A DNA stretch of 64,000 nt from Clostridiales bacterium (GCA_040766505.1 JAXGQJ010000004.1:17549-81548); one strand, 5' to 3'. Positions 32,464-40,387 are shown, counted from the stretch's first letter. Numbers and translations are program-made. Notes: generated by a model not told the origin, from the letters alone.

Positions 32464-33954
32464 ATGGGTGAAATCAAAAGGCTTCAATATTTCGCCGGCG
32501 GCCAATGGCACACCTCAAAAAGTGAAACGTATATGACCGTATACAATCCCAGCACCGGCCAGCCGATCGCCGAAACGCCCTGCTGTACCGAGGAGGAGTC
32601 AACCATGCCGTCGCCTGCGCGAAAGAAGCGTTTCCGGGCTGGAGGGACACCCCGGCCATCAAAAGGGCCCAAATCCTCTAAACTACGGGATCTGTTGATG
32701 GAACATTTGGATGAACTCACCTATCTGGTGGCCTGGGAAAATGGCAAAGCCTGGGGCGACGCAAAAGGCGATGTATTGAAGGCGAAGAAGCCGACGGAGG
32801 TCGCCTGCGGCATTCCCAGCCTGATGATGGGCGAATCCAGCATGGACACATCAAAAGGCGTGGATACCGTACTATACCGCGAACCGTTGGGGGTTTTCGC
32901 GGGGATCGTTCCCCTTTAATTTTCCCGCGATGATTCCGATGGGCTGGATGACGCCGTTTGTATCGCCGCCGGCAATACCATCGTTTTAAAAGCCGCCAGC
33001 ATGACGCCGCAAACCGCGATGCGCATCGCCGATTTATACCGCGAAGCCGGCCTGCCCGACGGCGTGCTGAATCTCGTCACCTGCTCCAGGAATGAAGCGA
33101 ATCTGCTGCTTTCCCATCCGGATATCAAGAGCATCAGCTTTGTCGGTTCCACCGCCATCGGCCTTTCCGTCTATTCCCAGGCCGCCGCCGCCGGTAAGCG
33201 GGTGCAGTGCCTCTGTGAGGCGAAGAACCATGCCCTCGTCCTAGACGACGCGCCGATAGAACGAACCGCGGCGGGCATCATCAATTCCTGCTTCGGCTGT
33301 GCCGGAGAACGGTGCATGGCTTTGCCGGTTGTCGTCGCCCAGGAAAGCATTGCCGATCAACTGGTGGCGGCGATCGTTCGCAAGGCGAAAGAGCTAAAGG
33401 TGGGGCCGGCCTATGAAAAAGATACGGAGATGGGCCCCTTGGTCTCCGGCGGCCATAAGGATTTTGTCCTCAAATGGATCGACAAAGGGGAGGCGGAGGG
33501 CGCCGAAATGGTTCTGGACGGTAGGAATTTTAAGGTTCCCGGTTATGAGAACGGTTTTTTCGTCGGCCCCACCGTCGTGGACAAGGTACGGCCCGGCATG
33601 ACCATTGGCGATGAAGAGATCTTTGGGCCGGTGGTCTGCATCAAAAGGGTGAAGGATTTTGAGAGGGGCCTGGCCCTGATGAATGAAAACCAATTCGCCA
33701 ATGGCTCCGTTATTTTCACCCAGAACGGCTATTATGCCAGGGAATTTGCAGGGCGAACCGACGGCGGCATGGTCGGCGTTAATGTCGGCATCCCGGTTCC
33801 CATCGGCATTTTCCCCTTCTCCGGCCACAAACGCTCCTTCTTTGGCGATCTGCATTGTCTCGGAAAGGATGGCATCCGCTTCTATACCGAATCAAAATGC
33901 GTAACCACCCGCTGGTTCGACGAAGAAGAGCTGAAAAAGAAGGTCGATACTTGA
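32464..33954 (+). CDS. mmsA: CoA-acylating malonate/methylmalonate-semialdehyde dehydrogenase (MmsA/IolA type); frameshifted between ca. 32600 and 33000
   Basis: N-terminus MGEIKRLQYFAGGQWHTSKSETYMTVYNPSTGQPIAE after GGAAGGAGAG; ORF 33001..33954 (GERCMA, FPFSGHKRSFFGDLHCLGKDGIRFYT) matches MmsA closely. Confidence 0.75.
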
Positions 33955-34033
33955 GACAGCACCATCTGAGCCGGCCAAAACCTTGGTCGATTCCTCTATG
34001 AAGAGACATCCGAGCAAGCGAAGGAGGATGGTA

Positions 34034-35356
34034 ATGGATATCAATCAGTTTTTGAACCAGATGATAGCACGCGACCCGGATCAGCGGGAATTTCATCAGG
34101 CGGTGGAAGAGGTCGTGACGACGCTGGCGCCTTTATTGAAAAAACCCGGTCTATCAAAAGGAAAAGATATTGGAGCGTTTGGTGGAGCCGGAGCGTGTCA
34201 TCATGTTCCGCGTACCTTGGATGGACGACCAGGGTGAAATCCAGATCAACCGCGGCTACCGCATTCAGATGAACAGCGCCATCGGCCCCTATAAAGGCGG
34301 CATACGCTTTCATCCTTCCGTCAATCTGAGCATTCTAAAATTTTGGCTTTTGAACAGGTATTGAAAAACAGCCTGACCACATTGCCGATGGGCGGCGGCA
34401 AAGGCGGCGCGGACTTTAACTGCGTCGGCAAAAGCGACCGGGAAGTGATGCGCTTCTGCCAATCCTTCATGACGGAACTGTACCGCCATATCGGCCCGAA
34501 TCTCGACGTCCCGCCGGCGACATCGGCGTTGGCGCCCGGGAAGTCGGCTATCTGTTCGACCAGTATAAACGTTTGGCCAATGAATTCTCCGGTATCCTGA
34601 CGGGCAAAGGCAGATCCTTTGGGGGCAGCCTGATCCGTCCGGAAGCCACCGGCTACGGCACCATCTACTTCCTCGCCAAAATGCTGGCGGTGAAGGGGAC
34701 GATATCGAAGGCAAGACGATCGCGATATCGGGGTATGGCAATGTTGGCACCTTCGCCATCGAAAAGGTGAATGAACTTGGCGGCAAGGTTGTCACCATCG
34801 CCGACGAATACGGTTATGTTTATGATCCCGACGGCATCGCCGGGGAGAAATTGGAATATTTGAAGGATCTGTGGTGCGTCCACCGGAAGAGCGCCAAGGA
34901 TTTCGCAGACCGTTATAAACTGGCCTGGGTAGAGGGAAAACGGCCCTGGTATATCCCCTGCGACATCGCGATTCCCACGGCGACCCAAAATGAACTCAAT
35001 GAAGAACATGCGCGGGAATTGGTGAAGAACGGCGTGCGCTATGTGGCGGAAGCCGCCAATATGCCCTGTACGAACCAGGCTTTGAAGGTATTCCTCGACG
35101 CGAAGATCCCCTTCGGCCCGGGAAGGCCGTCAATGCCGGCGGCGTTGCCACCTCCGGCCTGAAATGTCCCAGAACAGCATGCGCTATAATTGGTCCGGGA
35201 AGAGGTGGATGCGAAGCTGAAAGACATCATGGCGAACATTCTGACAATTGCATGGAATACGGCAAATCGCCGGAATACAATAACTATGTCCAGGGCGCGA
35301 ACATTGCGGGCTTCGTTAAAGTCGCCGACGCGATGATGGCCCAGGGATTGGTGTAA
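34034..35356 (+). pseudogene. gdhA: NAD(P)-dependent glutamate dehydrogenase; frame broken at least five times
   Basis: fragments [81 protein letters not shown] and ..AGFVKVADAMMAQGLV-stop spread over three frames. Confidence 0.7.
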
Positions 35357-39060: not shown

Positions 39061-39082
39061 GATTTTGTCTCCCTTCCATCCT

Positions 39083-40387
39083 TTAATTGCACGCGCCGTC
39101 CAAGATGGCCAGGTTCTTATCGAGGACGGCCAGCACATCATCGAGTTGATCCTTGGTGATGACCAAAGGAGGGCCAAAATTCATCAGATTGCTATAGGTC
39201 ATGTGATAGACGCCGTCCTTCAGATTGGCGCTTTTGAACGCCGACATAGAGGCATCGTCCATCTTTTCCTTCGTTTCGCGGTTTTTAACAAATTCCAAGC
39301 CGATAAATAGGCCGATCCCTCGCACATCGCCGATGGCGGGATGATGCTCCTGCAGTGCCTGGAGCTTCTCTTTCGCATAGGCGCCAAGGATCACTGAATT
39401 CCTCAATAAACCTTCTTCGCCATAAATCTCCATCACCCTGCAAGCGGTGGCGACACTTAATGTATGTCCGCTATAGGTCAAGCCCGCCGACAGCTTGCGG
39501 TCTTCAAAATAATCGGCGATTTCATCTTTAACCGCCACCGCCCCCAAAGGAGCGTAGCCGCTGGTCATCCCTTTGGCCATTGTCACCATGTCGGGGACGA
39601 TGCCAAAATGTTCAAAGGCGAACATTTTGCCGGTGCGGCCGAAACCCGCCATGACTTCATCGCAAACCAGCAAAATCCCGTACCGGTCGCAAATGGAACG
39701 GATCTTAGGCAGATAGCCTTTCGGCGGCACAATGATGCCGTTGGTTCCGGTGACCGTTTCTAAAAAGACGGCGGCGATGGTGGCGGGGCCTTCATATTGC
39801 ACCACCTCTTCAAAATGCTTGGCGCATTCCAAATGGCAATTTTCCTCCTTTTGGCCGAAAGGGCAACGGTAGCAATAGGGATCGAGAAATTTCACGACGC
39901 CGGGAATCAGAGGCTCCGCGTCAACGCGCCTGGGATCGCCGGTTAAGGCGAGGGCGCCGGCGGTGGCGCCATGGTATGAACGGTAGCGGGACAACAGTTT
40001 GGAGCGGCCCGTATAATAGTGGGCGATCTTGATGGCGTTTTCATTGGCGTCGGCACCGGCATTGGTGAAAAAAACCTTGCCAAACCCTTTCGGTAGAAAA
40101 TCGACGATTTTTTTCGCACATTCCCCTTTTTTGCTATTGCTGAAGCAGGGCGCCGCAAAGGTCAATACATCCGCCTGCTCTTTCAGAGCGGCGATTGCTT
40201 TAGGATGCTGGTGCCCGATATTACAGTTGACCAACTGCGCCGACAGATCGACAAAACGGTTTCCTTCCGCGTCGAAAAAATAGATGCCCTCTCCCCGCTC
40301 CATCGGTATCGGGTAAATCGCGCCCTGCACAGACCAGGAAAACAGATTGTATTTTCTGTTCAGCTTGATGATTTCCTTATTGTCCAT
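39083..40387 (-). CDS. class-III PLP-dependent aminotransferase (omega-amino acid / beta-alanine--pyruvate transaminase type)
   Basis: ORF 39083..40552; start MDNKEIIKLNRKYNLFSW at 40387 after AAAGGAGAGAG; ..VTMAKGMTSGYAPLGAV.. PLP-lysine region. Confidence 0.8.
   Translation of the reverse strand: MDNKEIIKLNRKYNLFSWSVQGAIYPIPMERGEGIYFFDAEGNRFVDLSAQLVNCNIGHQHPKAIAALKEQADVLTFAAPCFSNSKKGECAKKIVDFLPKGFGKVFFTNAGADANENAIKIAHYYTGRSKLLSRYRSYHGATAGALALTGDPRRVDAEPLIPGVVKFLDPYCYRCPFGQKEENCHLECAKHFEEVVQYEGPATIAAVFLETVTGTNGIIVPPKGYLPKIRSICDRYGILLVCDEVMAGFGRTGKMFAFEHFGIVPDMVTMAKGMTSGYAPLGAVAVKDEIADYFEDRKLSAGLTYSGHTLSVATACRVMEIYGEEGLLRNSVILGAYAKEKLQALQEHHPAIGDVRGIGLFIGLEFVKNRETKEKMDDASMSAFKSANLKDGVYHMTYSNLMNFGPPLVITKDQLDDVLAVLDKNLAILDGACN

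Follow-up and report, generated by a model that had tools for sequence, protein, structure and literature searches.

The 64,000-nucleotide (nt) stretch of Clostridiales bacterium DNA analyzed here (GCA_040766505.1 JAXGQJ010000004.1:17549-81548; hereafter the window, whose positions serve as coordinates) harbors, between 30.7 and 44.5 kb, genes for pyrrolysine (Pyl)-containing and Pyl-free corrinoid methyltransferases together with a class-III aminotransferase, a coenzyme A (CoA)-acylating semialdehyde dehydrogenase, a glutamate dehydrogenase (GDH), and a BCCT-family transporter. Judged by its gene content and layout, this block is probably, at a probability of about 0.55, one catabolic gene cluster for a trimethylammonio acid. 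A conserved gene set in unrelated bacteria points to an undescribed, complete pathway for betaine-type osmolytes. Family assignments follow the curated cutoffs of NCBIfam, and PYLIS elements were assigned with Rfam.

In sediments, guts, and saline soils, few osmolytes are as abundant as betaines, which are also major precursors of trimethylamine and methane. In the known anaerobic corrinoid systems, one methyl group is taken and the nitrogen stays locked in the product. If the proposed reading is true, the cluster would allow a betaine to be broken down completely, to acetyl-CoA, ammonium, and three methyl groups, and an anaerobe would thereby gain both the nitrogen and the carbon skeleton. 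The cluster would also give a physiological role to the large uncharacterized bacterial MtbB clade and would test whether pyrrolysine enzymes are confined to free methylamines.

Organization of the Gene Cluster

The minus-strand block opens with an intact 546-aa open reading frame (ORF) for a PucR-family transcriptional regulator (42817..44457). It is followed on the same strand by mtbB (41302..42690), encoding a Pyl-containing dimethylamine-type corrinoid methyltransferase, the gene for its cognate corrinoid (B12-binding) protein (40621..41271), an intact gene for a 434-aa class-III (omega) aminotransferase of the Toa/PRK06062 clade (39083..40387), and a Pyl-free MttB-superfamily paralog (37640..39060) with one assembly frameshift near 38912. 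The aminotransferase stop and the start of the paralog are separated by 22 nt. This spacing and the common strand bear out the claim of an initial sequence-only reading that the aminotransferase forms one operon with the Pyl-containing mtbB, the corrinoid protein, and the Pyl-free paralog. A hairpin 3′ of the paralog, with a 14-bp stem followed by GGUUUUCGG (37585..37630, minus strand; -27.8 kcal/mol, z = -2.7), is probably the operon terminator.

Upstream of the PucR gene lies a sigma-70 consensus promoter at 44524-44497 on the minus strand (TTGACA, 16 nt, TATAAT; 12/12), and a second perfect 12/12 consensus is found at 30459-30432 (minus strand), upstream of a comM-like gene. A scan for promoters and terminators returned counts no higher than in shuffled sequence; of its predictions, just the hairpin 3′ of the paralog and the two promoters with a perfect consensus merit note. 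The PucR gene product has weak NCBIfam matches to PmfR, CdaR, and AdeR, its orthologs carry the Pfam domains PucR and HTH_30, and its gene has no frameshift relative to the relative L170.

Further along the block, a gene for a BCCT-family transporter for quaternary ammonium compounds (35732..37415, minus strand) lies between the paralog and gdhA (34034..35356, plus strand), which encodes an NADP-type GDH. Next to gdhA is mmsA (32464..33954, plus strand), encoding a CoA-acylating malonate/methylmalonate-semialdehyde dehydrogenase (MMSDH), and divergent from mmsA is mttB (approximately 30712..32197, minus strand), encoding a Pyl-containing trimethylamine-type methyltransferase. Five proteins score above their NCBIfam cutoffs: the aminotransferase, MmsA, GdhA, MtbB, and the Pyl-containing MttB, the two dehydrogenases as repaired proteins. 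Thus, the mmsA, gdhA, and aminotransferase genes that had been named at the outset are present where they were placed. That reading had included neither the BCCT gene nor the frameshifts described below, and it left the enzymes for the second and third demethylations unnamed.

The BCCT protein is a 435-aa fragment, shortened by assembly frameshifts, that scores 309 bits on TIGR00842 (cutoff 407.6) and 287 bits on a CaiT-like model. The intact BCCT proteins of the L170, L171, and L174 clusters reach 420-500 bits on TIGR00842, and that of L001 is an 85% identical ortholog.

The cluster is undergoing rearrangement within the lineage of the window. Between the corrinoid and aminotransferase genes is a 233-nt gap (40388-40620), at which relatives have a full BCCT gene (L170, 5296-6990; L001, 8226-9889), and the block of L001 contains a DUF772 transposase-like gene. 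The cluster proteins of the window are 77-87% identical to those of L001 and L170, except for PucR (approximately 60%), while G+C content is 54% in the window, 45% in L001, and 42% in L170. Such a contrast, given the protein identity, points either to horizontal transfer of the cluster or to a rapid drift in base composition.

Conservation in Other Lineages

The neighborhoods of Pyl-free MttB orthologs, which are intact proteins of 472-476 aa with 47-82% identity, were inspected in four lineages (L170, L171-L173, L174-L176, and L177). In L170, a short-read assembly in which all genes are intact and the paralog is 82% identical, the order is PucR, mtbB (Pyl), corrinoid, BCCT, aminotransferase, and MttB. 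In L171-L173 (paralog 51%), a divergent PucR gene accompanies the series MttB, aminotransferase, mttB (Pyl), mtbB (Pyl), corrinoid, BCCT, and MmsA; the class-III aminotransferase is 35% identical to that of the window and belongs to a different subfamily. In L174-L176 (paralog 51%), a divergent PucR gene is found with BCCT, MttB, corrinoid, mttB (Pyl), mtbB (Pyl), a second corrinoid gene, aldehyde:ferredoxin oxidoreductase (AOR), and aminotransferase. Here the aminotransferase is 49% identical to that of the window and AOR takes the place of MmsA. The fourth lineage, Desulfosporosinus lacus (L177, GCA_900129935.1; paralog 47%), has MttB, corrinoid, mttB (Pyl), and a phosphodiesterase. In this cultured species the locus (4958-16060) also carries BCCT and sigma-54 activator genes, and the phosphodiesterase-family protein has 680 aa.

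The gene set around the Pyl-free MttB orthologs therefore recurs in L170, L171, and L174, which supports the link between demethylation and transamination/oxidation that had been claimed for the window. A Pyl-containing mttB is found in the set-bearing lineages wherever the sequence extends far enough. The set is kept despite a different gene order, a non-orthologous aminotransferase in L171, and the replacement of MmsA by AOR in L174. A linkage that survives both rearrangement and non-orthologous replacement argues for a single shared pathway rather than chance neighbors.

In L171, the cluster is inserted into a methylmalonyl-CoA (propionate) pathway block, with genes for succinyl-CoA synthetase, succinate dehydrogenase, malic enzyme, and fumarase flanking it at one end and the methylmalonyl-CoA mutase gene at the other (1-9800 and 20055-21425). 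This setting may hint at a propionyl-CoA/succinate product or may be a mere insertion site.

Methyltransferases and Their Corrinoid Partner

MtbB scores 488 bits on TIGR02368 (cutoff 369). Its gene has an in-frame TAG at 41650-41652, a TGA as the true stop, and a PYLIS_2 element at 41553-41652 (58 bits). The Pyl-containing MttB scores 589 bits on TIGR02369 (cutoff 525), with its TAG at 31214-31216 and a PYLIS_3 element at 31117-31216. Pairwise identities among the Pyl-containing MttB copies compared are all 44-61% except for the window-L001 pair, which does not discriminate for or against a separate clade of cluster-linked copies. The bacterial MtbB clade is a large one with hardly any named members, and it includes at least 120 sequence clusters with the same TAG position. 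The corrinoid protein scores 211.1 bits on TIGR02370 (cutoff 215.3), 192 bits on the MtbC model, and 180 bits on the MtgC model, and its orthologs carry the Pfam domains B12-binding_2 and B12-binding.

The Pyl-free paralog scores 258 bits on TIGR02369, below the cutoff of 525, and its best solved relative is MtgB (9YCE/2QNE; 284 bits). MtgB contacts glycine betaine through Y97, R312, H348, and F356 (PMC13080624). At these positions, the paralog has V, R, E, and I, respectively (Y97V, H348E, and F356I). Because only R312 of the four contacts is kept, the specificity of the paralog is predicted to differ from that of MtgB while retaining the anion-binding arginine. The paralog is a member of the MttB superfamily but, as judged by these residues, is not MtgB and not a glycine betaine enzyme.

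No member of the MtmB family is found among the Pfam annotations of the fetched clusters, and no mtmB-type PYLIS element is detected in the window with Rfam. Therefore, the use of free methylamines would end at monomethylamine, and the three methyltransferases match the three methyl groups of a quaternary amine.

Aminotransferase and Dehydrogenases

The aminotransferase scores 537 bits on PRK06062 (cutoff 472), and its L174 homolog scores 557 bits. The nearest solved relative is the taurine:2-oxoglutarate aminotransferase of Bifidobacterium kashiwanohense (6JIX), with 382 bits and the next match at 279. Homologs at 44-83% identity were surveyed at no fewer than 169 loci, of which 152 have usable flanks; among the matches listed, an MmsA-like dehydrogenase gene is present in 63 of the 152 loci and lies at most 300 bp away in 39 of them, and of 168 other loci only L001 and L003 have MttB-family genes near this aminotransferase clade. 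The homologs listed from genome and metagenome contigs were no more than 55% identical. The pairing of this aminotransferase with an MMSDH spans Chloroflexota, Actinomycetota, Acidobacteriota, and Myxococcota, and the paired dehydrogenases sampled from different phyla all pass TIGR01722 (4 of 4). In the close relatives L005-L007, an aminotransferase of 73% identity is directly followed by an MmsA ortholog (66%), and methyltransferases are not nearby. In L008 and L009 (Chloroflexota-like), the pair is joined by two further class-III aminotransferases, a spermidine/putrescine-type ABC transporter, a saccharopine-dehydrogenase-like gene, and AOR, a set that looks like a polyamine-to-beta-alanine route.

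Repaired MmsA scores 546 bits on TIGR01722 (cutoff 448.5), and the intact L171 ortholog (64.5% identity), whose best solved relative is the Bacillus subtilis enzyme MSDH (1T90), scores 552 bits. The Arg-Cys motif is kept, as GCAGERCMA in the window and gcagqrcma in L171, aligned to GSAGERCMA of 1T90. In this enzyme family, the arginine immediately before the catalytic cysteine has a role in carboxylate binding. Because the aminotransferase clade is paired with MMSDH-type dehydrogenases and the ortholog keeps the Arg-Cys motif, the product of the aminotransferase is most probably a 3-oxopropanoate-type aldehyde, derived from beta-alanine or 3-aminoisobutyrate. The sequence-only reading had allowed a beta-alanine- or gamma-aminobutyrate (GABA)-like skeleton; the beta-alanine type is the one that MmsA favors, and the GABA type is less so.

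The GDH gene directly follows the aminotransferase in L003, behind a PucR gene, and lies beside mmsA in L001. This position fits recycling of 2-oxoglutarate. As a qualification to the earlier reading, GdhA is accessory, being linked only in the lineage of the window and in L003.

Integrity of the Reading Frames

Neither mmsA nor gdhA is a single ORF in the window. Alignment to intact orthologs reveals four insertions or deletions (indels) in mmsA (at about 32588, 32676, 32909, and 32958), eight in gdhA, one in the Pyl-free MttB paralog, at least one in the Pyl-containing mttB (near 30955), and at least two in the N-terminal part of the BCCT gene. In contrast, the aminotransferase, corrinoid, mtbB, and PucR genes are indel-free. 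Every gdhA event is a deletion (1 nt in seven cases, 2 nt in the eighth), with about half in or beside short single-base runs, and no nonsense substitutions occur in this gene. With the eight deletions repaired, GdhA scores 703 bits on NF006929 (cutoff 536) over profile positions 6-445 of 445, compared with 722 bits for the intact L003 ortholog, and is 86% and 70% identical to the intact orthologs of L001 and L003, respectively. Amino acid identity of MmsA to L001 is 80-88%, and that of the unbroken genes is 83-87%.

Housekeeping genes are likewise fragmented, including proS, hslU, ispG, dxr, ddl, a Mur ligase gene, nuoD/M/N, and trmD. Frameshifts are pervasive in 7700-19400 and 47500-62300; proS is spread over approximately eight frame segments, tsf and pyrH are affected too, and an ORF at 58316-59281 joins RNase HII with NuoA. 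The density of errors is uneven, from zero in 39.1-44.5 kb to approximately 6 per kb in gdhA.

This unevenness could suggest that mmsA and gdhA are decaying pseudogenes and that the oxidation module no longer functions in this genome, since the two genes carry 12 frameshifting indels in approximately 2.9 kb whereas the aminotransferase, corrinoid, mtbB, and PucR genes carry none in 5.4 kb. Such decay is very improbable. The gdhA lesions are confined to 1-2-nt deletions, about half of them in or beside single-base runs, and the repaired GdhA score is near that of the intact L003 ortholog. GdhA and MmsA are as similar to L001 as the intact genes are, proS, hslU, ispG, and dxr are at least equally fragmented, and intact copies are present in the relatives L001, L170, and L171. 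The pseudogene interpretation is rejected and the indels are assembly errors, since essential genes are broken to the same extent, the repaired proteins show full conservation, nonsense substitutions do not occur, and all indels are short.

Proposed Pathway

From the gene identities, the operon layout, and the conservation of the gene set, we infer a route whose substrate, order of methyltransferases, choice of cofactors, and acceptance of substituted amines by the Pyl enzymes would be as follows. The BCCT transporter would import the quaternary amine, a trimethylammonio acid. The Pyl-free MttB paralog would pass the first methyl group to the corrinoid protein, leaving a tertiary amine. The Pyl-containing MttB homologue would take the second methyl group from this trimethylamine-like tertiary amine, and the Pyl-containing MtbB homologue would take the third from the dimethylamine-like secondary amine, which would yield a primary omega-amino acid. 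This assignment of MttB to the tertiary and MtbB to the secondary amine is proposed because the aminotransferase needs a primary amine and no mtmB is present. The aminotransferase would then move the amino group onto 2-oxoglutarate, and MmsA (or AOR) would convert the resulting semialdehyde to an acyl-CoA, for instance malonate semialdehyde to acetyl-CoA and CO2. GdhA would regenerate 2-oxoglutarate with release of ammonium, and the PucR-type regulator would control the operon. The best guess for the substrate is beta-alanine betaine, which is favored because of the link to the MMSDH.

A more general proposal can be made for bacteria that carry such clusters, tentatively and with the odds against it. 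In these clusters, the Pyl-containing "trimethylamine" and "dimethylamine" homologues would act on R-N(CH3)2 and R-NH-CH3 and not on free methylamines, such that a quaternary amine would be stripped to the primary amine without MtmB and then transaminated and oxidized.

Several observations weigh against a single betaine pathway. The D. lacus cluster is without mtbB, aminotransferase, and dehydrogenase genes, and the L171 and L174 clusters lack GdhA. In L003, MttB genes lie next to those for an aminotransferase and a GDH, but no mtbB is seen within 10 kb of them. The Pyl-free MttB of L003 was considered as an ortholog of the paralog and rejected at 27% identity. The count of three enzymes for three methyl groups is weakened because L003 has no mtbB within this distance and its Pyl-free MttB is non-orthologous. 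The four lineages may share the cluster by horizontal transfer and not by independent retention. The closest characterized relative of the aminotransferase acts on taurine. MmsA of both the window and L171 has a lysine where 1T90 has Arg106, although the basic character is kept; Arg106 of 1T90 is presumably the substrate-binding Arg124 of standard aldehyde dehydrogenase numbering. Neither a methylcorrinoid:tetrahydrofolate methyltransferase nor a reductive activase is found in the cluster. Both the Pyl-containing MttB and the Pyl-containing MtbB score above the cutoffs of curated models for genuine trimethylamine and dimethylamine methyltransferases, and archaeal enzymes of the two families are regarded as substrate-specific, MttB stringently so (PMC13044021).

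Alternative Interpretations

The main rival reading has two independent modules in a nitrogen-source island. In this arrangement, the Pyl-containing MttB and MtbB and the corrinoid protein would act on free trimethylamine and dimethylamine, the Pyl-free MttB would demethylate some quaternary amine once, as happens in Eubacterium limosum, and PucR, the aminotransferase, MmsA, and GdhA would form an ordinary catabolic unit for beta-alanine or another omega-amino acid, with co-location arising from common regulation or joint horizontal transfer. Such a partition is rather unlikely, but it accounts for the scores of the Pyl enzymes on the trimethylamine/dimethylamine methyltransferase equivalog models and for the stringent specificity ascribed to archaeal MttB (PMC13044021). 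The aminotransferase-MmsA pair also occurs without methyltransferases in dozens of loci, including L005-L007, and in L004 and several Bacillota loci the gene immediately upstream of the aminotransferase is a PucR gene, again with no methyltransferases. Four genes of the 64-kb window belong to the MttB family, a density at which proximity by chance has to be considered, and a transposase-like gene lies inside the L001 block. The partition is at odds with the position of the aminotransferase within the methyltransferase operon, 22 nt from the MttB paralog, and with the persistence of the association in L171 and L174 under another gene order, with a non-orthologous aminotransferase in the former and AOR for MmsA in the latter. 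It also leaves free-methylamine use incomplete, as there is no mtmB, and among the matches listed MttB-family genes accompany the aminotransferase clade in just 2 of 168 other loci.

A single pathway with the same logic could instead act on another skeleton, such as N,N,N-trimethyltaurine, which would lead via taurine to sulfoacetaldehyde, gamma-butyrobetaine, which would lead to GABA, delta-valerobetaine, or a 2-methyl analogue yielding propionyl-CoA. In favor of another skeleton, the solved structure closest to the aminotransferase is that of a taurine:2-oxoglutarate aminotransferase, a name that JGI also gives to the homologs, and the window BCCT protein scores highest on the model of the carnitine/gamma-butyrobetaine antiporter. 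L174 has a broad-range AOR and not MmsA, and the genes flanking the L171 cluster, methylmalonyl-CoA mutase included, would fit a propionyl-CoA or succinate product. Any of these substrates is nevertheless improbable. Two lineages, and the wider aminotransferase clade, have linked MMSDH-type dehydrogenases that carry the Arg-Cys motif; none of the clusters contains xsc, islAB, sarD, or a gene for succinate-semialdehyde dehydrogenase; and the BCCT proteins of L170, L171, and L174 are of the glycine-betaine type.

Genomic Surroundings

The housekeeping genes of the window follow the order trmD...rnhB...yraN-comM-dprA-topA-trmFO-xerC-hslVU...rpsB-tsf-pyrH...dxr-rseP-ispG-proS, into which the methyltransferase blocks are inserted. 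This order matches the classical Bacillota arrangement, as on the B. subtilis map. Beyond the yraN-like gene, a DUF1538 membrane protein (45704-47479, minus strand) has a long low-complexity C-terminal tail rich in Ala, Glu, Pro, and Lys.

A second methylamine-type cluster occupies 1028-7698 on the minus strand. It comprises genes for an amino-acid permease (1028-2497), a Pyl-containing MttB (approximately 2500-4084, with PYLIS_3 at 3004-3103), a very divergent Pyl-free MTTB-family protein (4097-5689) that is 22-24% identical to the 37640-39060 paralog, and a PAS/sigma-54 activator (5788-7698), all on the minus strand. Here again, a Pyl-free MttB gene lies beside a Pyl-containing one.

Comparison with Known Systems

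Literature searches found no cluster that combines MttB/MtbB with an aminotransferase (with or without MmsA) and no anaerobic demethylation of beta-alanine betaine, in agreement with the claim of the sequence-only reading that no such combined locus is described. Among the nearest systems are MtgB/MtgC of Desulfitobacterium hafniense and MtcB, MtyB, MtpB, and MthB of E. limosum, which like the window cluster employ a Pyl-free MttB-superfamily enzyme with a corrinoid protein and a BCCT transporter. Systems of the MtgB/MtcB type take one methyl group and leave a dimethyl product, whereas the window cluster additionally encodes a Pyl-containing MttB, a Pyl-containing MtbB, an aminotransferase, and an aldehyde dehydrogenase. 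Three of the four glycine betaine contacts of MtgB are replaced in the window paralog (PMC13080624).

The methanogen Pyl pathway (MttB, MtbB, and MtmB with their corrinoid proteins) shares with the window cluster the TAG-encoded pyrrolysine, the PYLIS elements, and family membership. Unlike in methanogens, the host here is a bacterium, mtmB is absent, the genes stand among those for the Pyl-free MttB, the aminotransferase, and MmsA, and the substrates would be substituted amines.

"Candidatus Formimonas warabiya" DCMF converts betaine to dimethylglycine and then to sarcosine, which is processed by sarcosine reductase; the enzyme of the second step is unassigned (PMC9768040). As in the route proposed here, a Bacillota anaerobe demethylates a betaine more than once before acting on the amine that is left. 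In DCMF, demethylation ends with the secondary amine, which undergoes reductive cleavage, whereas the window cluster is proposed to use a third methyltransferase and a transaminase/dehydrogenase route instead.

Taurine degraders employ Tpa with alanine dehydrogenase to recycle the amino acceptor. The enzyme BkToa (6JIX) is the closest characterized relative of the window aminotransferase, and here GdhA is positioned to regenerate the amino acceptor. The cluster differs in that it has no sulfoacetaldehyde-processing genes and in that the linked dehydrogenase is of the MMSDH type.

Catabolism of beta-alanine and other omega-amino acids is exemplified by bauABCD of Pseudomonas, which includes an omega-aminotransferase and a malonate-semialdehyde dehydrogenase, and by the PucR-type GabR with gabTD of Corynebacterium. 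The regulator, the class-III aminotransferase, and the semialdehyde dehydrogenase of these units are also found in the window. In contrast to these units, they are here fused into a methyltransferase operon and would be fed from a demethylated betaine.

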